DNA of 62,907 nucleotides, counting the filler. It is 12 parts of 12 records of this genome, joined end to end, with 100 filler letters (N's around TTAATTAATTAA, not from the genome) between each part and the next. Parts side by side here need not be neighbours in the genome. Positions count along the whole stretch, not along the records: positions 16,663 to 22,351 come from SRR7504441_19348; 11 more parts are not named here. One strand, 5' to 3'. Position numbers and translations under genes: made by a program. Shown one piece after another: positions 9,298 through 54,457 of the stretch. Position 1 is the stretch's first letter. The number at the start of each line of letters is the position of its first letter. The notes beneath the pieces are model-generated. The model did no database searches. It had not been told where the DNA came from and worked only from the letters and a program-made list of their open reading frames with translations.

Positions 9298-9397
9298 NNN
9301 NNNNNNNNNNNNNNNNNNNNNNNNNNNNNNNNNNNNNNNNNTTAATTAATTAANNNNNNNNNNNNNNNNNNNNNNNNNNNNNNNNNNNNNNNNNNNN
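9298..9397. other. Artificial contig linker
   Basis: N-run + TTAATTAATTAA (stops in all six frames) + N-run, 100 nt. Confidence 0.98.
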
Positions 9398-12543: not shown

Positions 12544-12643
12544 NNNNNNNNNNNNNNNNNNNNNNNNNNNNNNNNNNNNNNNNNNNNTTAATTAATTAAN
12601 NNNNNNNNNNNNNNNNNNNNNNNNNNNNNNNNNNNNNNNNNNN
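12544..12643. other. Artificial contig linker
   Basis: Same 100-nt N/TTAATTAATTAA/N pattern. Confidence 0.98.
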
Positions 12644-14231: not shown

Positions 14232-15730
14232 ATGCAGGAGGGCGGGGGCGAGCTGGACGATTTCTCGCCGGAGCCGAGCCTGACGGAGGCGCCCCCGCCG
14301 GAGGGCGATGTCTTCCAGAACCAGCCGTTCGACGAGGCGATGGCTCTCACCGACGAGAGCTCGGTCGCGGACGAGTCCGAGGACGAGCTCGGTATGGACC
14401 TAGGTGCCGGGCCCCGGCCGCCCGGGCCAGCCGGGCACAGGCCAGCCGGGCGAGCGGTCCACTGAGCTGGTGGCCAACCAGTCGTTCGACGAGGCCATCG
14501 ACGTGTCGGACGCCTCCACCGTCAGCCCCGGTCTGGGGCGGCGGGGCCGGGGCGCTGAGGGTTACCGGGGCAGCTAACATGAGCGGGATGAGCGGGAGCG
14601 GGCCCCGGGAGCCCAGCCTGAGTCCGGAGGAGAAGGGGGCGGCCCGCAACCCCGAGATGCTGCTGCTGAACGAGGGAGACACTGAATCGAGCAGCGAGCC
14701 CGAAATGGACGAGCTGCCGCACACCGGCGGGCTCGGGGAGTCGATGGATCCGGAGGAGACCCAGAAGGGGTTCACGGTGCGCCCAGCCGCCAGCTGGCTC
14801 GGCCGAGCGCCTGTTGCAGCCGATCGAAGGAGGGTACGACCCTGCGGATTTCGAGGATCTGGACTGCGGCGAGGATGTGAGGGATCTATTCATGTGCGGC
14901 TACCCGGTCGGGCCGGGGCCGACTGGGGGCAGGTATATTACGCGCTACCAGGCCCACGCGGCCGAGCTTGAGTCGACGCTTAAGCCATTCATCCCAGAGT
15001 ACATGCCAGCCGTGGGCGACATCGATGCGTTCATCCGCATTCCCAAGCCGGGGCGGGCGGAGGCGGAGGAGCCGCTCGGACTGAAAGTGCTGGACGAGCC
15101 GGCGGCGGTGCAGACGGACCGGACGGTGTGGGCTGGGCCGCTGGGGAGTAAGTTTGGGCAGGTTCTGGAGATGCAGCTGAGGGCACATACCAAGCAGACG
15201 GGGCTGCAGGCGCAGGAGGTGGCATCGATCAATGAAGCGGCGCACAACCCTCAGGTGGGCTGGTCAGAGCCGTGCCGTGCGATCCGGGCGACAGGCGATA
15301 AGGAAGTGGATAGCTTCTGTTGAGAGCCTGCATAGCTCCAAGCCTGAGAGCTCAATTGCGTTCAGCCGGCCGATGCCGGAGATCGAGGCGCTGATGCAGG
15401 TCAAACTCGCCCGGTGCACCGGCGTGGAGTGTGCGGGCAGGTGTGGCCTGCAGGGTTTGAGGAAGCGCTGGGGAATGTGCCGCTGCCTCCACCACACTTG
15501 GACTGCTCGGTGGAGGTGGCTAGCGGATCCGTGGCGGCTGGATGGGTGCGGGGCAGGAATACGCTCGGCTTTGTTGCGCGCTGCTGGACATCCCGGTGCA
15601 GGACAACCTGATCCACTCATTGCACACGATGTGTATGCTGTACTCCGAGTTTAAGGGCAACCAGCACTTTGGTGACCTAGGCGAGCCGGGGCTTGACCAA
15701 CAAGACGGCAACGCGATGATGTTCCAATAG
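14232..15730 (+). CDS. IFT46: Intraflagellar transport protein 46
   Basis: Acidic N-terminus with NQPFDEA-type repeats; GYDPADF, LFMYITRY, LKPFIPEYMPAVGDIDAFIRIP, LGLKVLDEP, MPEIEALMQVWP, ALLDIPV, LYSEFKGNQHF; 8 short GT-AG introns. Confidence 0.95.
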
Positions 15731-16562: not shown

Positions 16563-16662
16563 NNNNNNNNNNNNNNNNNNNNNNNNNNNNNNNNNNNNNN
16601 NNNNNNTTAATTAATTAANNNNNNNNNNNNNNNNNNNNNNNNNNNNNNNNNNNNNNNNNNNN
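16563..16662. other. Artificial contig linker
   Basis: Same 100-nt pattern. Confidence 0.98.
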
Positions 16663-16881
16663 AGCAGAAGCTAGCCCGACTCCAGTTGGAGCGGCAGCCC
16701 GGGCGGGCCTGCAAGACGCTCGGGCTGTGCCTCCATGGTTGTTGAGCAGCTAAGGCCTATCACACAAAGCTTAGACCTATCCCAAGTGCTGGCCCAGACC
16801 TTGCTGCTGCAGCTGCCATGACAGGTGAGTGGCCGTGATTCTATCGCTCAACACTGCGGCGAGTGCTCCAAACTCATCCTG

Positions 16882-17815
16882 TCACCCGCTCAGGCGCAGC
16901 CCCTGGCAACACACCTCGGTCAGAAACCGCTCGCACTCCCTGCCGAGCCAGGTGCTGCACCGGCACTCGACCGACCCTGCACCAAGCTCAAGCGGCAAGC
17001 AGTACGGCCATACTCGGTGAGTGAGGCTCCACCCTGAAGCCCTTGCCCGGAGGCTGCTGCCAGCCGTATCCTGCCCCAGAGTCAGACCACTCCAGTCCAG
17101 GCTCCACCTGCCAGCTCGCCGTCGAACAGCACCGCTGCCTCCTGGAACGGCGGGCAATCCCTCACTCGCTGCAGGACTGGCCCGCTCCCGCCCATCATCG
17201 CAGTAAACGTGGGGCTCGTATCGCCCGAGGAGCCCCTGCAGCGGCGGGTCAGCTCCAACCGACAGCTTGCCCGGCGCCTGCCGTGCAGCTTGAGCATAAA
17301 CCTGACGGTTTGGACCCCGTGATCGGCAGCGGCCGCCAGCCAGTCCATCACCACTGGCACGGCCGCCTCGAGCGGCGCTAGTTCGATCTGGGCCTCGAGG
17401 CCCTGCACAAACCTGGCCTTGGACACCCGTGCCAGCCGGTCCCCGGCCGTCTCCACCAGGCAGGTCGGGCCGTTGGCCTGGAGCTGCTGGAGCAATCCAG
17501 CCAGCCCAAAGTACTGAGCCTCGGCGCACACAGCCTCCAGCTGCTCCGGCGGGGGCTGGCGGACCCCCCGCAAGTAGTTTAGCAAGTAGTGGAAGTGCCG
17601 CCCGTCACGGTCGATGAAGATCCGGCCGGCGCTGTCCCGCTCGTGTCGCAAGCCGTGAGAGAACAAGGCGGCCAGCATGCTCTGCTCATCGCCCCGCAGC
17701 GTGTCCAGTGTGGTGCTCACGCACACGCCTGACCCCCCGGCTGGCTCGGCCCATACGCCCGCCCACCCCCCACGTTGAGCTCCACCACTGACGAGCTGGT
17801 GGACGGCCCGGCCAT
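16882..17815 (-). CDS. BTB/POZ (KCTD-type) protein; 3' end uncertain
   Basis: Spliced VVELNVGGVCVSTTLDTL, SMLAALFS, IFIDRDGRHFHYLLNYLR, EAQYFGL. ATG at 17815. Confidence 0.85.
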
Positions 17816-17897
17816 CACAACAGCGCGGCACCCCTGGCAGTCCTCCTTCCCGCCAAACTCTCGTCGATTGTCCAGCTGCAGGCTCCAAGCTGGTAGT

Positions 17898-18728
17898 ATG
17901 GGCAACGCGGCCAGTCCGCGGTACCGCAGCTCCGGCCTGGAGGAGCCGGACTCGCTCCAGGGGCTGGTGCTGGCCGCCCCGCCCACCGCCGGCCTGGCCC
18001 CGGGGCTCCAAGTGCTGATCGAGCTGGACAGCGCCGGGCTGAGGGTGCTGCCGGCTGACGGCTCGGCCCGGCCACTGTGCGCGCTCAGCCTGTTCGAGCT
18101 CCGGTCGTGGCGTCTGGACCCGGGCGATGCGATCTCGCTGGTGCTGCGCGACGGCGGGCAGTGCAACACATTCACATTTAAGGTGCGCAACCCGACCGAG
18201 GTGTTCAACCGGCTCACCCTGACGGCTGAGCTAGTTTTGCGGGAGCTAGCGCACCAGGAGCTGAGTCACTCGCCCCGCAGCCCCGCTCAGCGGATCAGAC
18301 AGGACATGAAGAGCCAGGGGCTCCGCCGGAGAATTTCGTCCAGCCTGGAGCTGGACTGGTCAGTCAGCCCAGCGAGCCCACAGACGCCTGTGAGCCGCTC
18401 AGAACTAACCCACTGTGTCAAGGATCTAAACAGCGAGCTAGCTGAGGTGCACAAGTCGAAGCTCGATCTGCTGGCAGCAATCGAGGCACGTGGCGAGGCC
18501 AGCCCACCCAGCCCGCACACGCCTTACAGCGACGACGGCCCTTGTGGAGGCTTTACCGTGCTAGTCCGCAAAGGCGAAAAGGAGAGGCTTGCCCGTATGG
18601 ACACGCGGGCGCAAACCAAAGAAGTTAAGATTGGGCGATATCTCCAAAAGCTACGACGAGTGGCACGGGAGCAAGAGAATCCGCTCCTGCGGGTTCTTGC
18701 CAAGTGGCACAAGCAACCAGCATTATAA
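17898..18728 (+). CDS. Hypothetical protein with possible N-myristoylation, PH-like region and coiled coil
   Basis: MGNAAS start; beta-rich segment ending in a helix (FTFKVRNPTEVFNRL); heptad-like C-terminal region. Confidence 0.55.
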   Translation: MGNAASPRYRSSGLEEPDSLQGLVLAAPPTAGLAPGLQVLIELDSAGLRVLPADGSARPLCALSLFELRSWRLDPGDAISLVLRDGGQCNTFTFKVRNPTEVFNRLTLTAELVLRELAHQELSHSPRSPAQRIRQDMKSQGLRRRISSSLELDWSVSPASPQTPVSRSELTHCVKDLNSELAEVHKSKLDLLAAIEARGEASPPSPHTPYSDDGPCGGFTVLVRKGEKERLARMDTRAQTKEVKIGRYLQKLRRVAREQENPLLRVLAKWHKQPAL

Positions 18729-18904
18729 AAACACTTGCGTCGAATCGTTTGAGAATTGCTTTGTCTGAATAGTGATTAAATCATAAATACCTTCACGCAA
18801 AATATATGTACAGGATTTGGTCGAGCCACTTTTAATAAGCCCTACACGTAAGTGGTGTGGTTTTACATACGGCGCGAGCTGTTATAATTATGCATGCTTC
18901 AAGA

Positions 18905-21900
18905 TTATTTCATGAGGCGACGGAGTCTTAGCATCGCAATTCCAACCAAGGCACAAGCCATCATCGCTGCGACGGAGCCCCGGTGGCTGCTCAACTGCTT
19001 GAGCAGCCTAGCGATCGCCGCCCCCAGCCCCGTTTTGGATGCCACCGCGTTGTCTTGCAATCCGAGCTTCATTGTCGCCGCCTTGCTGGCTGGCAGAGCA
19101 TTGCTACCAGTCCAGCGCTCACCAAGCTTGGGTCCAGTCTTGGGCTTGCCCTTCTTACTCTCGGGCGGGGCGCCGTTGGCCGACATGTCCTGGTGGTCTG
19201 GCTTGGCATTGTCTATCGAGAGCATCGGCATCAGCGCCGCCTTCAAGTTGTTGAAAAGCTGCGGTGTCTGGTGCTCCTGAGCTGCCAGCAGCTGCTTGCA
19301 CCGCACGCGTTCCTTGGGTGCCTCGAAGCAGGCCGGACAGTTCTCGTTGATCACCGGAAGATTAGCCTCGGCGGCGAAAGCTCGTAAGTCGCGCTCTCTC
19401 ACGAACGTGAGCGGCCGGATCACTCGGAGGTCTTCCTGAGCAACTGCGTAGTTTGCCTTGATCGTGCGGAGCACTCCGTTGAAGAAGGCGGCCATCAGGA
19501 AGGATTCAGCCGCGTCATCCAGGTGCTGACCGAGTGCGAGCACATTGTACCCCTCGCGCCGCATTGCCGCATAGAGCCGGCCGCGCTTCATGCGGGCGCA
19601 GAACGAGCAGATCGAGCTGGGCGGCTGCTGCTGGCTCCTGGCCAGGTCGATGATCGGCTGCTCCTCGAAGAAATAATCCATCCCAAGAGCCTCAAAGTAG
19701 GCCCGCAGCGGCCGCGGGTCAAACCCGTCGGCCTTGGGATCGACTGTGACTGCCCCAAGAGAGAAGTTGACTCCGCGGTGCTTCATCATCTGCTGGTAGC
19801 TCCGCAGAATGTGGACCATGCTTAGACTGTCCTTGCCCCCGCTCACTCCGATCATCACTCTGTCCCCGTCCTCAATCATCTTGAACTTCTCTATCGCTTT
19901 CACAGTCGCCCCGAACACTGGTTTAGGCGGCTTCACAAACCCCCACTCCCGTTCCACAACCACCGGTTCCGGCACTGGCGGCGCTGCAGCCGGAGCGGCG
20001 CACCCGCGCACCCTGAAGAGCGGCTCCCTCGCACAGCCCTCGCCGCCGCCCCGGAGATATTCAACGGCTTCAGTAGGATACAGGAACCAGCGCAGCCGCT
20101 CCCTGGCAGGGTCCAGCACGGACTGCTCGCCAGTGCGCTGCTTGGAGGCCCCTTGGTCCAGGATCCGCGCCGCCTGCCCACCCTAGCAGCAGCCCCACCC
20201 AGAGCAGCCGCCTGTGAAAGCGTCTCGGCATAGTATTCCTCCTCACTGGCGCTAGCCGCCTGCTCGGGTAGCTCCGGTGCGTTGAACCTGCCCAGCCAGG
20301 CTCAGCTGCTGGCTCCAGACGCTCACCTGAGCCGATCGTTGTTGTCGGCCTCGAGGGCGACATCCGAGAGCCAGAGTCGGCTGCTGGCGCTCTTGAAGTT
20401 CCTGTGCGACCACTCGCCCGTCTCGGGGTCCATTTGGTAGTCGGCCATCACCCGCCACCCGTCCCGGGCCACCTGCGGCCGGGCTCGCTCAGGCCGGGGC
20501 CGGGGCTCGCCATCTTGATCGCGCTGCACACAAACTGGATCAGCTGCGTCGAGGCCGTGTAATGCAGGCTCACACGCACAAACCCTGCCCCGAGCCTCAC
20601 ACCCACCCACAGCCGGCATACCCGGCCGGAGCAGCTCGCGGCCCGAGCCCCGGCGGGCCTGGTCGGTTAAGAGCTCGGCCAGGCCTCCCCGCTCGTCGAG
20701 CACGGACCGCTCTAGTTCGCGGGCGAGGGTGAGGTCGATCCCAAGCAGCCACTGGGCGTACGGCCCGGCACACGCGCACCCGGCCCTGGCTTGGATCCCG
20801 AACAGATCGTTTAGCAGGGTGGCCACCAAGTTGTGGTGCAGGTACCGGCCCGACTTGCGGTGCAGCACCACAAAGGAGAAGACCGGCAGTCGGGCTGTAC
20901 TCGTGTCGCCCAGCAGCTGGAGCGGCTCGCAGCCCACCAGCTGCTCCATCGCCGAGCAAGCCACCGCCCTCTCCAGCCGCTCTATCGCCGCGGCACCAAC
21001 GGTCCGGTGCACGTGCATGGCCAGTCCGGCCCGGATCGCGCCGACGATATCTGGCGTGCCGCCCTCCTCGCGTTCCTCAAGCTGCCACAAGTACCGGTGC
21101 TCCTCGGCCGTCACGAAGAACACCGAGCCGCCCCCGTGCCCGCTCGGCACCGGGTTGGCCCACAGCGCCCGTTTGGCCACCAGCACCCCCGGCGTGCCCG
21201 GGCCGCCGGCCATCTTGTGCGGCGAGATGAACACAGCATCCTTTGCAATCGATTCCGCAGAGTACTGCGGATCCACAGGGTTCATATCGCATCCTAGCCC
21301 AGGGAAGCCCGACCCGTAGTCCCAGAAGGCGAGCGCCCTGTGCGCCTTGAGCAGGGCCGTCACCTTGTGCACATCGCATAGCGCGCCAGTCACGTTGCTA
21401 GCCGCTGTGAACGAGCCCATCAGCAGCGGTCGGTCCTTGCACTCCACCAGCAGTCGCTCGAGCGCCGACAAGTCCAGCCCACCGCTCTCGTCTGCCGGGA
21501 CTGTCCGCATCTCCACGTGCGGGCACTCCCGCCAGGGCAGCTGCCCGCCGTCAGCCCGCCCAGACCGGGGCGCACCAGGTTGCTGTGGTGCTCCTGCAGG
21601 CCGACGAACACCACCGGCCGAGCCCCAACGAACCGATCGAGCTGGAGCGCGTGGATCAGCTTGTGCACCGCCGCGGTGGTCCCAGAGCCGGTGAAGAGCA
21701 CCACGTCGTCCACGGCCGAGCCGTTGCACGCCGACTGGATGATGGCCCGGGCCTCCTCGCGGCACCAGGACGAGCTCAGCCCGGCCCGCGAGGCACTGGT
21801 GTGTGTGTTGCCGTACAACGGCAGCACACGGTCCGTTATGAACCGCTCGACGAACCGCAGCGCCCGGCCAGACGCAGACCAGTCGCAGTAGACCAGCCGG

Positions 21901-22049
21901 CGCTGGCCGTACGGCGAGGCGATCGGGCACCGCTCGCCCACCAGCTCGTCACGCAGCCCACGGGCGACCGCCTCGGCGTCATCCGCCAGCGGCGGCCGCA
22001 GCCAGAACCGGGCGTCGCTCTGGGTCCACCGCCTGTCGCCGAACCCCAT
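18905..22049 (-). CDS. Class V aminotransferase (SufS-type cysteine desulfurase) fused to a TtcA-like tRNA thiolase, with C-terminal TM segment
   Basis: N-part: YCDWSASGR, YGNTHT, FTGSGTT, EHHSN, AASNVTG, SPHK (PLP Lys), GGTP, RAGCACA. C-part: SGGKDS PP-loop, CSFC, GQHLDD, IRPL, CPAC. Introns 20288-20326 and 20174-20211 keep one reading frame. Confidence 0.85.
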
Positions 22050-22351
22050 GCGGCACAGACGCTCGAAGACCGGTCCAGCTTGACCGTTAGACTCAGCGGC
22101 CCGTGTACGAGTGTCTCTCAATCTGTATCTCGATGTATTCTTCTATTCAACACAATAAAACCAACTAAACAGAACGCTAGAAGCAATCTCATGATCGATA
22201 TATGATCGATAATTATCATCAAATGAGCTTCGTCCCTTGGAGGGTCTCATGATCATGGAGGTCTACTATTGTAGGTTCACCAGGCTCAGTTCCTCAACCT
22301 TGGCTCTAGTCTTCTCCAGGAGTAGCCAGAATCTGGATCGACTGGTCCTTG

Positions 22352-22451
22352 NNNNNNNNNNNNNNNNNNNNNNNNNNNNNNNNNNNNNNNNNNNNTTAAT
22401 TAATTAANNNNNNNNNNNNNNNNNNNNNNNNNNNNNNNNNNNNNNNNNNNN
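22352..22451. other. Artificial contig linker
   Basis: Same 100-nt pattern. Confidence 0.98.
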
Positions 22452-23103: not shown

Positions 23104-25741
23104 TCAAGCCTCTTGATCGTGAATCGTCCGCCCTTGATCAAAGCCACAGACCAGTTTAGTCGCTGGATCGCGAATCAAGCATCCTGATTGAAACTGGACC
23201 ATTCCCTGTTCCCACCCGGCCATGGATCGCAGCTGGTCGAGAACCTGTGTAGTTCCGAAAAATGGATGCGACGCCACGGTGTCATCCAGAATCCCATGCG
23301 CCAGACTAACGCACTCCACCCCGCATATTGACAACGATTGCCCACCTTCAAGCACAAAGCTGTATACTGCGCCGCAGGGCTGTTCTCGCGTTTCGGCCAG
23401 GTTTGCTGGGAATGTCCAACATCCGGCTGCTTTGACGGGATGCCACGGGGTGACCCGCAGCCCACTGCCCAACTCCACAAGCGCGGCTTTGCCATCCTTG
23501 CAGATGGTCTTGACCACGCACAGCACGGATGCCGGCCGACCAGAAGAAAGCACTTGGTCGCCTCGCTCAATACACTCCACACGCTTGTCAGGCATCCCTT
23601 GGGCCATCGCGACCATGCACTCCCCAGCAAAGCAAGGATTGTTAGCCTGATTGTAAGCCGCCATGCTAATTGGAGCCGAGCGCTGTGCGCTCTGGACTGA
23701 TTGGCCGGGCTGTGGTGCTGGGGCCGTGATAGACGGCGTGGGCGGGGGCATTTGGTTGAAGCACTCGTCTCCTTCGTCACGCAACCGGTCAAATTCGTCG
23801 CTGGCTGCGTACTCCTGCAGCCCGACGTCTTTGAAATTTGTGCACAGCTGCATCCGGTGGGCTAGCAGCAGCGAGCGGAGATAGTGCTTGCCCCAGCGGT
23901 TGAACCATTCGTCCAGTGAGAACGCCTCTTTGATCTGGCCGTCCAGGTCGCCAAGCACTGGGTCGCGCGCCAGTTTCCCAGGCACAATCTCGCGAGATAT
24001 GGCCGTCGGGTCCGCCCCCATCGACACCAGCTGCTCGCGGAGCGACTGGAGCCCGGCTTGGGCCTCAGCCAGAGTGACGTCTCCGGCCACCACTTGATCC
24101 ATCAGCTTGTGCACGCTATCAACGAACTTCACTCGCCGAGCCTGCGCGTACAGCTGCTCGTCCTCGCCCTCACCGGGCTGCATCCCAGCCGAACGGTCAC
24201 CCGCTGGAGTGTTGTACCGAAGCGTGGCATTGGCCACTGGAGAGCTGGTGCAGTTCCGGGCCTGGAGCACCACGGAGCGGCGTGCGCCATACTGGAGCAC
24301 ACCAAGGTCGACCACAGCTGTGCCCTCACTGGTGGCGACCGCATCGCTCCCGAGCAGCTCCACGCCGGGGGCTAGCTCGAGCTCCACCTGAGCCTTGCCG
24401 ATCTGGAGCAGCGAGTTGGCCAGCGAGTGTATGAACGCTGTGCCAACCATCCCGGAGTCTGGGATGAACGAGTACATGCCGTGCCCACGCAGCGCGATCG
24501 CTTCTAGCAGCTCCGAGTCCAGATTGTACCCGAACCCGAAGGTGTTGATCGAGGCGCTCAAAGGGGTGCTCTCTAGGTACTTGCGGAGCATCGGCAGGAT
24601 CCCACGCGGCGGGTTGAGGTTGGGCACCCCATCAGTGAGCAGCATCACTGAGGGCACGCTCCCGTCCTGATCAGACGTGCTGCGCCGGACTCAGCGGCGG
24701 CCGGGCGGACAAGGGCACCGGATGACCTCCATTGCGGTGTGCAGTCCGTCCCACAGGTTGGTTCCCCCGTAGGCTGTCATGTTTTCGACCTGGCCCTTCT
24801 CACAGGGCGAGGCTCTCAGATACACCCACCGCCGACACTGCCCGGGCCTTGCCAGCTTCGGTCATTCTAAGCGGGGTGAGCACAGTGGTGGCTTTGTTCG
24901 AGTAAGTGACCTGGCCGGCCGGTCGGGCGGTCCATGCGGGCTCGCACCAATGAGATTCTGTCCTGCTCGCTGAGCAACCGGATGATCACCTTGACCGAGT
25001 GCTTCACGATATCCAGGATAGACAGCCCTGCCGGCAGTTCTGAGCCGGGCGCCCGGTCGGGCCGGGTGCCGTGGCTCTCGACCCCCTCGCCGGTCTGAAT
25101 CTTGGACTCTAGTGACATTGAGCCCGATACGTCCACCTGGCTCGGCTGGACCCAGCCCGGCCTGACCAGCCACCACGCAGCAGATGTGCACGGGCACTCT
25201 GGCCGTCGCAGCCGGAGGGAGCGCCTCGAGCATCAGCAGCTGGGCGCCTGACCCCTCGCTAGCCGCCGCCAAATGCTCCCGACCCACCTGAGGCGCCCTC
25301 GGCCAGATCGGGCAGCACCCGGCTCGTGAGTTGGACTTGGACCTCCTTGGGCGCCGGGGCCGCCGGAGCCGCCGGGGCGGTGGAGTTGGCCGGCGGCTTG
25401 GCGCTGTCCGGCGTGTTGGCGCTCTTCCACTCGACGATCGCGTCCCGGAGCGCCCTGTTCGGGACCAACTGCCCGGCCGCCAGCGGGCTCCGGGTCATTG
25501 GCGAGACGGCCTGCCCCCAGCTGGGCCGGGGCGCGTCGGGGGGGGGGGGGGCGCCTCGCGGGAGAGCCATTCGAGGATGGCGGCGCGCTCGTAGGTGTTG
25601 CCCTCGGGGTCCACCACCTGCAGCCGCTCCGCCCCGGGGGCTGGGCGGCCGCACCGGGTCATCCATCACCACGTGGGTAATGCTGCACAGGAAGCTTTGC
25701 GGGGCCGACGCGGCGCGCGCGAGCGCAGCGCTGGAACTCAT
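23104..25741 (-). CDS. U-box - vWA - Vwaint - Hint (Vint) protein
   Basis: U-box FLCSITHVVMDDPVVDPEGNTYERAAILEWL...SPMTR...LVPNRALR; MIDAS DVSGSM, GGTNLWDGL, LLTDG; RWGKHYLRSL...CTNFKD; Hint begins NNP|CF at 23634 with VTPWHPV. Confidence 0.92.
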
Positions 25742-26090: not shown

Positions 26091-26190
26091 NNNNNNNNNN
26101 NNNNNNNNNNNNNNNNNNNNNNNNNNNNNNNNNNTTAATTAATTAANNNNNNNNNNNNNNNNNNNNNNNNNNNNNNNNNNNNNNNNNNNN
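26091..26190. other. Artificial contig linker
   Basis: Same 100-nt pattern. Confidence 0.98.
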
Positions 26191-31613: not shown

Positions 31614-31713
31614 NNNNNNNNNNNNNNNNNNNNNNNNNNNNNNNNNNNNNNNNNNNNTTAATTAATTAANNNNNNNNNNNNNNNNNNNNNNNNNNNNNNN
31701 NNNNNNNNNNNNN
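31614..31713. other. Artificial contig linker
   Basis: Same 100-nt pattern. Confidence 0.98.
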
Positions 31714-35960: not shown

Positions 35961-36060
35961 NNNNNNNNNNNNNNNNNNNNNNNNNNNNNNNNNNNNNNNN
36001 NNNNTTAATTAATTAANNNNNNNNNNNNNNNNNNNNNNNNNNNNNNNNNNNNNNNNNNNN
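35961..36060. other. Artificial contig linker
   Basis: Same 100-nt pattern. Confidence 0.98.
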
Positions 36061-39218: not shown

Positions 39219-39318
39219 NNNNNNNNNNNNNNNNNNNNNNNNNNNNNNNNNNNNNNNNNNNNTTAATTAATTAANNNNNNNNNNNNNNNNNNNNNNNNNN
39301 NNNNNNNNNNNNNNNNNN
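39219..39318. other. Artificial contig linker
   Basis: Same 100-nt pattern. Confidence 0.98.
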
Positions 39319-43635: not shown

Positions 43636-43735
43636 NNNNNNNNNNNNNNNNNNNNNNNNNNNNNNNNNNNNNNNNNNNNTTAATTAATTAANNNNNNNNN
43701 NNNNNNNNNNNNNNNNNNNNNNNNNNNNNNNNNNN
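43636..43735. other. Artificial contig linker
   Basis: Same 100-nt pattern. Confidence 0.98.
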
Positions 43736-47958: not shown

Positions 47959-48058
47959 NNNNNNNNNNNNNNNNNNNNNNNNNNNNNNNNNNNNNNNNNN
48001 NNTTAATTAATTAANNNNNNNNNNNNNNNNNNNNNNNNNNNNNNNNNNNNNNNNNNNN
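47959..48058. other. Artificial contig linker
   Basis: Same 100-nt pattern. Confidence 0.98.
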
Positions 48059-49517: not shown

Positions 49518-51080
49518 ATGCAAGAGGACGAGGACGAGCTGCGGCGTTCGTTCCGGCTGGCCGAGGACGAGAGCTTGTGGCGGGAGGACCAGGGCAACCG
49601 CTGCCCACCGCTCTGCGCCGGCAGGCTCAGGTTCGTGGGCGTCTTCACCAAAACCCGCCCGCGCGAGCACGACGCCGGTGCGGAGCGCGGCGGCCGGCGG
49701 GAGGGCGGCCGGCAGATCGGGCGAGCACGGTGACCGAGGTGTTTGTAGATTTGGTCTACATCTTCGTGCTCCAGGCAGCGTGGCCTGCGGCACAGCGCTG
49801 ACCGCCGCGGTTGCAGGCGATGCTCCAGAACAATATCAACGGCGCCGGGCCGCTCGGGCGGTTTGTGCTCACCTACGCGGCTATGTTCAACTCGTGGCTC
49901 GGGAACGCCTTCTAGTGCGCCCCACCCCGGGGCTGCCCCCGAGCGGGCCGGGCAGCAACACTCGGTTCGACCAGGAGGATTTCATCAGCCAGGCGCTGGT
50001 GTTGCTCGCAATGCTCGGTGTGATCGGGATGGCGTCGGCTATACCGCTTGAGTGGGGCGGGGCCCCGGCCGACACGATGGAGGACGGGCTCACGAGATTC
50101 GCCGTCTTCTACGCTGCTGTCCGGGCGGTTCTGATAATCAATTATATCAGGGCGTGGCTGGCGATGCCGCCGGTCCGGGCTCTACTGGGTGGGTTCGTAG
50201 TGGGGTTCGGGCTGGGCTGCGGCTGCTGGGTCGGGGCAGGGCTTGGCTCGGACAATGTTTGGGTGCGCGGGGTGCTGGTGGGGTTGGGGTTCGTATTTGA
50301 CTACGGGACGCCGTTCGGGCTGTTGCCTTGGATGATCAGAGTGCATCACACGCACATGACTGAGAGGTTCTTCTGCATCACCCAGATGGCGTTTGCGGGC
50401 ACTATTTTCATGTTTGTGGGGAACATAATGAGCATAGTGCATCAGGTGCTACGACCGTTGTACTATAATTATTCAATAACACTGACGTCATTGCGATGCA
50501 GGTGTCGGTGGTGAAAGTTCTGCAGGTCGGGGCGCTTGGGCTGCTGGTAGTCTATCCGTTCCAGCTGCTTCACGCTCGAGACACCGGCCCGTGGGTGCAG
50601 CGGTTTGAGTCGAGTACCCAGCACAGGCTCCGGGCGTATGCCTGGCTCTACATTCACATGCCCCTCACGATGGCCATCATGCTGGTCGGCGACTCGATGG
50701 CCAACGGCATTCAGATCAGTGACTTGCACTTCAAGAGAGCCCAAGCCGACTGGCACAGGGCCATGCTCTGCCTCAGTGCGGGCGTGTTCCACGTATTACT
50801 CGGGCTGCTGCATCTACTATCGGCTCCGAGCGTGGCACCGGTCGAGAAGAGGAAGCGATGGGTAATGCGATTCGGGGCGGCAGCGGTGCTGCTCGGCCTC
50901 GGGCTATCGGACTGGCCGGCGGTGCGCGTGTTGGTGACGATTAGCGTGGTGGGGCTCACGGAGGTGGTGGTGGATGCGCTGCACTTCACGCGATCAAGCT
51001 CTGGCTCGGGTCTAGAGAACAAGATTTCGGACCCGTGGTCCGACCAGCTCGGCGAGGTCCCACAGCACGAGTGGCCATGA
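49518..51080 (+). CDS. Low temperature requirement A (LtrA) family membrane protein
   Basis: TEVFVDLVYIF, NTRFDQED, HMTERF, YAWLYIHMPL; about ten TM segments; several short introns. Confidence 0.8.
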
Positions 51081-54357: not shown

Positions 54358-54457
54358 NNNNNNNNNNNNNNNNNNNNNNNNNNNNNNNNNNNNNNNNNNN
54401 NTTAATTAATTAANNNNNNNNNNNNNNNNNNNNNNNNNNNNNNNNNNNNNNNNNNNN
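54358..54457. other. Artificial contig linker
   Basis: Same 100-nt pattern. Confidence 0.98.

Follow-up and report, generated by a model that had tools for sequence, protein, structure and literature searches.

Structure of the fusion gene

The window, a stretch of 62,907 nucleotides (nt) of DNA, contains a minus-strand gene in which a pyridoxal 5'-phosphate (PLP) module resembling cysteine desulfurases is joined to a TtcA-like thiolase module and a hydrophobic C-terminal tail. The gene lies on a contig of 5.7 kb (16663-22351) that is edged on both sides by joining spacers. It extends from an ATG at 22049-22047 to a stop codon at 18907-18905 (18905-22049, minus strand), as an earlier reading of the sequence alone had placed it, and comprises six exons and five introns that together specify a protein of 985 amino acid residues. 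Before splicing, the minus strand between 22121 and 18905 presents three long open reading frame (ORF) pieces in differing frames. The sequence-only reading had joined these into one frame by means of two introns, a GT-AG intron of 39 nt at 20288-20326 and a GC-AG intron of 38 nt at 20174-20211. Both exist as described and a single frame is indeed obtained, but this takes five introns, three of which, located in the PLP part, had been missed. When all five are removed, as they must be, joining the exons by coordinates yields a single open frame of 2958 nt.

Exon 1 (21576-22049) provides 158 codons for the N-terminus and the first third of the PLP domain, and its start matches that of P0001, the closest relative of the encoded protein. 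Intron 1 (21541-21575; GT-AG, 35 nt) interrupts an EHHSNL/LPW motif that can be aligned to SufS. The core of the PLP domain, including the PLP lysine and the cysteine motif, is encoded by exon 2 (20622-21540), which is separated by intron 2 (20585-20621; GT-AG, 37 nt) from exon 3 (20511-20584), with its 24 whole codons and one shared codon. Intron 3 (20473-20510; GC-AG, 38 nt) is followed by exon 4 (20327-20472) for the C-terminal extension of the PLP module. Exon 5 (20212-20287), with 25 whole codons, lies between the two introns that had been recognised previously, which are introns 4 and 5. Lastly, exon 6 (18905-20173) encodes the end of the PLP module, the linker, the TtcA-like domain, a spacer, the putative tail anchor and the stop codon. 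All of these features are on the minus strand, and introns 1-3 fall inside the PLP domain. Four of the five introns have GGGCAG as their 3' end.

Several observations support this gene model. In a MAFFT alignment with P0001 and seven other fused homologues, which runs from end to end, there are zero gaps at all five junctions. The window protein and P0001 have the start MGFG in common, and stretches of identity extend from the first residues to the end. The Pfam match to Aminotran_5 continues across intron 1, with profile position 102 at the end of exon 1 and position 113 at the start of exon 2, and retention of intron 4 would lead to an immediate in-frame TGA. Judged from these comparisons, the spliced junctions join one gene with both domains in one polypeptide; the open spliced frame and the gapless junctions thus bear out the linkage that had been proposed from the letters alone.

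Introns of this size were also seen by eye on other contigs of the window. Putative GT-AG mini-introns of 40 nt each appear to join two ORF pieces in an IFT46 gene (15255-15294, plus strand) and in an actin-like gene (886-847, minus strand), and one of approximately 56 nt was noted near 50446-50501 in an LtrA-like gene. As a rule, the source genome seems to have tiny introns. The sizes of the introns in the fusion gene suit this genome, because mini-introns of approximately 40 nt appear in the IFT46 and actin-like genes as well.

Distribution of the fusion and previous description

A search for longer relatives produced 736 matches, 120 of which were listed. Both PF00266 and PF01171 were detected in 113 of these 120 proteins, which mostly derive from sponges, cnidarians, echinoderms, molluscs, arthropods, hemichordates, tunicates, amphioxus, the choanoflagellate Monosiga and protist transcripts. 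The similar fusions in invertebrates that had been mentioned in the sequence-only reading are therefore real, as this architecture search places them among the listed longer matches. The window protein has all of the motifs of the family, namely GCxCAGP, LRWFxxPxE, SGGKDS, CSFC and CPAC.

The fusion has been described before. The accessible parts of a preprint of September 2026 (10.64898/2026.09.27.754811) report the detection of 2-thiocytidine at position 32 (s2C32) in tRNA-Lys(UUU) of Aplysia and propose as its synthase a fused gene that was recognised as a blastp match to E. coli TtcA; the same parts describe the fusion gene as widespread in molluscs and beyond. Besides this preprint, the literature searches listed no other paper on the fusion, and no paper listed there combines the term 'tail-anchored' with it. 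The architecture is already known; the window gene is a further member of the family, and its tail is the sole unusual feature. According to the text available from the preprint, the Aplysia californica protein LOC101861551 has the same domain order, the PLP lysine, the C-CSFC-CPAC pattern, SGGKDS and a variable linker in common with the window protein. The two differ in size, the Aplysia protein having 1177 residues with a linker of 405 compared to 985 residues with a linker of approximately 45 in the window protein. The Aplysia protein was not a row in the tree described below, in which fused proteins from the sampled mollusc (Haliotis) and other animals share the clade of the window protein. 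Among the 120 listed longer matches, the animal proteins with names all lack the tail anchor predicted for the window protein.

The PLP module

The PLP module is complete and covers residues 1 to approximately 600, and Aminotran_5 (PF00266) was found in this N-terminal part when the exon translations were searched against Pfam. Of the NCBIfam models, SufS matched the PLP part best. When the module is aligned by HMMER to SufS chains (7e6d and 8d8s), the EHHSNL/LPW motif, the PLP lysine K267 of SPHK (residues 264-267, 21225-21214, minus strand) and C415, the second cysteine of GCACAGP, match their counterparts. C415 is part of the RAGCACAGP motif (residues 410-418, 20787-20761, minus strand) and occupies the position of the SufS cysteine. 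The alignment of K267, C415 and EHHSNL to SufS shows that the module is of type II (SufS/CsdA-like) and not IscS-like. This agrees with the earlier view, taken from SPHK and RAGCACA, that the gene encodes a SufS-type PLP enzyme. The accessible parts of the preprint, by comparison, describe the PLP part of the Aplysia protein as IscS-like and leave its catalytic cysteine unplaced (10.64898/2026.09.27.754811); as judged by the alignment with the type II (SufS) cysteine, this predicted catalytic residue is placeable here, as C415. An alignment of 49 fused proteins shows GCxCAG with both of its cysteines, and the arginine ahead of it, to be invariant, and the PLP lysine is present in at least 90%.

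The likeness to SufS and CsdA (represented by B. subtilis SufS, PDB 5xt5 and 7e6d) thus extends to the class-V fold family, EHH(A/S)N, the PLP lysine, and the loop with its arginine and cysteine. The window module differs by approximately 120 extra C-terminal residues that end in LRWFxxPxE, and by its GCxCAGP motif with two cysteines where the aligned SufS stretch has one. The conserved end of the module reads LRWFLYPTE in the window protein (20069-20095, minus strand). Such a motif is present in 114 of the 120 listed longer matches, and it also ends stand-alone bacterial relatives of the PLP module, where it was found in 47 of 120 sequences, many of them partial. LRWFxxPxE can therefore be regarded as the PLP module's own end, which means that the fusion linker is short here, with approximately 45 residues. 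The stand-alone bacterial relatives are approximately 50% identical and come from many phyla. They carry only generic source names, the nearest being named 'aminotransferase class V-fold PLP-dependent enzyme' or 'selenocysteine lyase/cysteine desulfurase'.

The cysteine pair C413/C415 (20778-20770), as opposed to the single cysteine of SufS, has a counterpart in these bacterial proteins, 106 of 120 of which read GCSCAGP. The two residues may constitute a relay or resolving pair.

The TtcA-like module and its origin

The PP-loop domain of residues 645 to 900, approximately, is complete and was recognised by Pfam as ATP_bind_3 (PF01171). It contains the PP-loop SGGKDS for ATP binding and adenylation (residues 674-679, 19826-19843), CSFC (residues 752-755, 19598-19609) and CPAC (residues 842-845, 19328-19339), all on the minus strand and all three as the sequence-only reading had listed them. 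CSFC lies opposite the CSLC of E. coli TtcA (Cys122, Cys125), and CPAC lies opposite its CNLC, the source of the third cluster ligand. In the 49 aligned fused proteins, SGGKDS is invariant, as is each of the four CXXC cysteines, and of the 120 listed longer matches all have SGGKDS and 118 have CPAC.

The domain scored 188 bits with the TtcA model, 56 bits with TilS (TilS_N), 55 bits with TtuA and 31 bits with NcsA. Among the PP-loop enzymes, the best family match was not with TilS, TtuA or the Ncs6/NcsA enzymes, their scores being 31-56 bits. Of the proposed identity as TtcA, the part that stood is that TtcA is by far the best model; full equivalence did not, as the domain misses the equivalog cut-off and belongs to a separate clade of short forms. 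With canonical TtcA (E. coli b1344) it has in common the PP-loop, two CXXC motifs at aligned positions and, if the likeness extends to function, [4Fe-4S]-dependent s2C32 chemistry, but 37 canonical proteins scored 324-512 bits compared to the 188 bits of the window domain. Canonical TtcA receives its sulfur from a separate enzyme, IscS. Ncs6/CTU1, NcsA and TtuA likewise possess a PP-loop and a [4Fe-4S] site with three cysteines, whereas their match to the window domain amounts to only 31-55 bits; in these enzymes the sulfur comes from Urm1 or TtuB thiocarboxylates. The best match of the domain among solved structures was TtuA PH0300. For E. coli TtcA, three of the CXXC cysteines have been reported to be indispensable, both for the [4Fe-4S] cluster and for s2C32 (the accessible text of PMC4081106). 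The CNLC of E. coli K-12 ttcA (b1344) is found at 210/213 in RefSeq and at 219/222 in the accessible part of that paper, whereas Cys122/Cys125 agree; its residue numbering seems to be shifted beyond the first motif.

The nearest stand-alone relatives of the window domain are bacterial proteins of 245-260 residues that are 49-57% identical to it. Those with a named source belong to the Pseudomonadota, are largely from sulfur oxidisers (e.g. Thermithiobacillus tepidarius, Thiothrix and Acidithiobacillus) and have identities of 53-57%. These short forms have the PPK start, SGGKDS, CSFC and CPAC in common with the window domain, but they stand alone, with no tail and with no PLP neighbour in up to 6 kb of flank. 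They too fall under the TtcA cut-off, with 200-224 bits, and several are named TtcA in the source records. The short form was the sole TtcA-like gene in all five genomes checked. In a sample of 121 genomes of the same phylum, 40 had a match, one each, of which 37 were canonical (324-512 bits) and 3 short (196-214 bits), so that short and canonical forms occurred together in 0 of the 45 genomes with a match. In phmmer comparisons with the window domain, 15 short forms scored 256-288 bits, compared to 88-126 bits for 30 canonical proteins.

A quick IQ-TREE analysis was performed on 80 rows, comprising the window protein, 33 of 240 matches chosen for taxonomic spread, 15 of 80 short loci, all 30 canonical loci and a TilS outgroup. 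The eukaryotic fused domains formed one clade of 34 rows (100 in the Shimodaira-Hasegawa-like approximate likelihood-ratio test), which joined the short bacterial forms (support 98) apart from canonical TtcA (support 96). Within it, the window protein paired with P0001 (support 100) and then with P0122 (support 95). The root of this tree is unsure because the TilS outgroup is on a very long branch. By sequence comparison, then, the ancestry of the thiolase part lies in a distinct clade of short TtcA-like proteins of bacteria and not in TtcA of the E. coli type.

Two relatives show other domain combinations. In P0122 (588 residues), which after P0001 is the next-closest relative, a thioredoxin domain (PF00085) precedes the TtcA-like one and the predicted protein lacks a PLP domain, and P0118 (1220 residues) has a rhodanese domain (PF00581) in addition to both usual domains. 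These architectures suggest that other sulfur or redox partners have been fused to the TtcA-like thiolase in some protists.

The C-terminal tail

Beyond the TtcA-like domain, a low-complexity spacer of approximately 60 residues rich in Lys, Ala, Gly and Leu (18974-19180, minus strand) leads to the tail (18908-18973, minus strand). The tail consists of a hydrophobic segment, residues 964-978 (18973-18929), followed by RLRRLMK with a net charge of +4. In a Kyte-Doolittle scan, the sole 17-residue frames with a mean of at least 1.6 start at residues 961-965 of 985, and the best has a mean of 2.15. There is thus a single hydrophobic segment within approximately 30 residues of the C-terminus, with no other such segment and no signal peptide, which is the sequence pattern of a tail-anchored protein. 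The hydrophobic segment with its basic end that the sequence-only reading had interpreted as a tail anchor is therefore present in the sequence.

Among the 120 listed longer matches, P0001 alone ends in a comparable tail; a segment of P0024 was flagged as well, but it is not terminal. Comparable tails were found in 3 of 120 listed matches of near length (P0169, P0194 and P0196) and in 9 of 150 representatives at 50% identity (the same three plus P0394, P0398, P0401, P0406, P0416 and P0446). Altogether, the tail was found in 10 of the 375 distinct relatives examined, and basic residues follow it in 9 of these 10. It is always terminal, 85-188 residues beyond CPxC. The tails of the window protein, P0001 and P0169 differ in sequence but have preserved their character.

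On a FastTree tree of 154 rows, from which eight proteins with less than 200 residues of the domain had been dropped, 8 changes are required to account for the 10 rows with a tail, and starred branches force at least 5 of these. The mean after shuffling was 9.8, and 9 of 500 shufflings were as low. A single origin of the tail was rejected in view of this scattering. Gain and loss are not separable on this tree because many rows are fragments or predictions with possibly cut C-termini, and truncated predictions may hide further cases.

An AlphaFold2 model of P0001, built from the 49-row alignment, had a mean predicted local distance difference test score of 77 and a predicted template modelling score of 0.63. 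It shows two well-folded blocks at residues 30-630, approximately, and 667-926, with a disordered linker (634-665) and a disordered spacer (927-1003) preceding a terminal helix (1004-1015) of low confidence.

Proposed activity and alternative explanations

We consider it fairly probable that a flagellated marine protist carries the locus in its nuclear genome as one spliced gene and that its product is a tail-anchored bifunctional enzyme of 985 residues, a desulfurase fused to a TtcA-like thiolase, that makes s2C32. What can be read from the sequence is the gene structure (deduced from homology), together with the domains and catalytic residues; how sulfur is handed over, which substrate is used, what is made from it and at which membrane the enzyme sits we infer. 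The PLP module would take sulfur from L-cysteine and form a persulfide on C415. The next acceptor of this sulfur would be the free iron of a [4Fe-4S] cluster, for which three of the four cysteines of CSFC and CPAC would serve as ligands. With ATP, the PP-loop domain would adenylate C2 of cytidine 32 in a cytosolic tRNA, and by analogy with E. coli TtcA the sulfur would displace AMP to give s2C32. The tail would tether the enzyme to the membrane of an organelle, on the side that faces the cytosol. The most likely candidate is the mitochondrial outer membrane or the endoplasmic reticulum, because the segment is moderately hydrophobic and ends with a charge of +4. The cluster itself would be supplied by the Fe-S assembly machinery of the cell. 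For this reason, the earlier description of a self-contained, membrane-tethered thiolation enzyme holds for the domains and the tail that are present in the sequence, while 'self-contained' is too strong.

A number of points weigh against this explanation, and they are considered here together with the alternatives to it. Membrane insertion and the target membrane are predicted from composition only. The hydrophobic C-terminus could instead act as a degron, form an amphipathic or oligomerisation helix, or have arisen as a hydrophobic run by chance. Its moderate hydrophobicity, with the best 17-residue mean as given above, the low confidence of the terminal helix in the P0001 model and the lack of a terminal hydrophobic tail in the other 119 listed longer matches (P0002-P0120), the named animals included, would all suit such an interpretation. 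However, the feature is kept in P0001 and P0169 despite sequence change, it recurs among the relatives mostly with a basic end, and it invariably terminates the protein, following a long spacer beyond CPxC. We therefore regard a role other than that of an anchor as somewhat unlikely, although it deserves to be taken seriously.

A second alternative is that the same fused enzyme has another product, thiolating a different position or base (e.g. to 2-thiouridine), another RNA or a small molecule. The s2C32 of Aplysia would then be made elsewhere, or be only one of several products. The 188 bits of the window domain are below the 272-bit TtcA equivalog cut-off (NCBIfam NF007972), its identity to E. 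coli TtcA is 28%, and its clade is split from canonical TtcA by long, well-supported branches. The literature searches found no experimentally tested member of the short-form clade, and in the accessible parts of the preprint the gene is connected with s2C32 by correlation (10.64898/2026.09.27.754811). Against this, TtcA remains the best model, with none of the other thiolases above 56 bits, and the fact that short and canonical forms never occur together in the 45 genomes fits one shared function. Moreover, Aplysia has both s2C32 and a fused gene that matches E. coli TtcA, as far as the accessible parts of the same preprint go. A different product is in our view unlikely.

The PLP module might also not be the sulfur donor, but a selenocysteine lyase or other class-V enzyme, fused for the purpose of co-expression or regulation while sulfur arrives via mitochondrial NFS1, as it does in other cytosolic thiolations. 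With the SufS model (TIGR01979), exon 2 scored 85.6 bits and P0001 114 bits, which is far under the cut-off of 475 bits; the scores are likewise far under the CsdA cut-off. The two-cysteine GCxCAGP motif departs from the single cysteine of the aligned SufS stretch, no assayed member of this PLP-module subfamily was found in the literature consulted, and tblastn detected the PLP module beside bacterial TtcA-like genes in 0 of 86 loci (with up to 6 kb of flank on each side for 80 of them and approximately 1.5 kb for 6), so that a bacterial operon precedent is lacking. Yet the lysine, arginine and cysteine align with those of SufS and are conserved among the 49 fused proteins to the extent described above, and the fusion has been kept across very distant eukaryotes, a classic sign of a functional link. 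This makes a PLP module that does not serve as the donor quite improbable.

Least credible is the view that the modules exist as two separate proteins, whether because each has its own or an alternative transcript or because the linker is cleaved, and that the fusion is a construct of the gene model: the linker is variable and predicted to be disordered, and cleavage is raised as a possibility in the accessible parts of the preprint (10.64898/2026.09.27.754811), but these parts also report even RNA-seq cover over the Aplysia gene, both domains occur in 113 of the 120 listed longer matches, many of them from transcript assemblies, P0001 (1016 residues on a contig of 3150 nt) must be a continuous coding sequence and is one continuous ORF, and the window gene has no ATG from which the whole C-terminal module could start, the first in-frame Met of exon 6 being 17 residues past the conserved start of the TtcA module, so that this domain could not be made whole on its own. 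RNA was available from one seawater metatranscriptome run, in which 0.05 of the sampled words were present, and no read over any intron was found in it. It contained one contig of 256 nt, corresponding to 19259-19514 inside exon 6, with 3 differences from the window sequence and no joints. Both GC-AG introns, 3 and 5, have homology support only.

Returning to the tail-anchored bifunctional enzyme, one may speculate that the anchored forms constitute a station for tRNA thiolation at an organelle surface. There, a dedicated, NFS1-independent cytosolic desulfurase would feed an Fe-S thiolase that a flexible spacer of approximately 60 residues tethers to the mitochondrial outer membrane or the endoplasmic reticulum, and s2C32 would be made near sites of Fe-S or sulfur export, tRNA import or localised translation. 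Soluble and anchored forms, each in its own lineages, would then be two modes of one pathway. We put this idea forward as a long shot.

Other features of the window

The window contains 11 identical spacers, each composed of 44 N, TTAATTAATTAA and another 44 N, at 9298-9397, 12544-12643, 16563-16662, 22352-22451, 26091-26190, 31614-31713, 35961-36060, 39219-39318, 43636-43735, 47959-48058 and 54358-54457. Stop codons are present in all six frames within each of them. Since these identical spacers are artificial, the window is a chain of separate contigs of 3-6 kb, and gene order across the spacers is meaningless. Neighbouring genes were considered as context for the fusion gene and dropped, the runs of N being contig-joining spacers. 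No tRNA genes were found in the window.

On the contig of the fusion gene, the ORFs 17085-18230 (minus strand) and 17733-18725 (plus strand) overlap, and only the minus-strand ORF has a Pfam match (BTB_2, KCTD-like). Owing to the high GC content, many spurious antisense ORFs occur throughout the window, including across the fusion gene. The adjoining contig carries an ORF of 528 residues (23107-24690, minus strand) with matches to Vwaint (E 1e-19) and to Vint (E 1e-43), a Hint-type domain that is hedgehog/intein-like. The Vwaint/Vint family occurs in protists and some animals.

Implications

Compared to the accessible parts of the preprint (10.64898/2026.09.27.754811), the present analysis of the window gene adds three points: a PLP part that is SufS-like by alignment, with the predicted catalytic cysteine placed; a thiolase part that stems from a distinct short bacterial TtcA-like clade and not from TtcA of the E. 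coli type; and a tail anchor in a minority of the protist members, from which a membrane location can be predicted. The picture at the level of the family is unchanged by these new points. The modification 2-thiocytidine has long been regarded as a bacterial and archaeal tRNA mark, and as a rule cytosolic thiolation draws on mitochondrial NFS1. If the chemistry proposed here is true, a marine protist would join the evidence for widespread eukaryotic 2-thiocytidine, and an enzyme with its own cysteine desulfurase would be an exception to the NFS1 rule.

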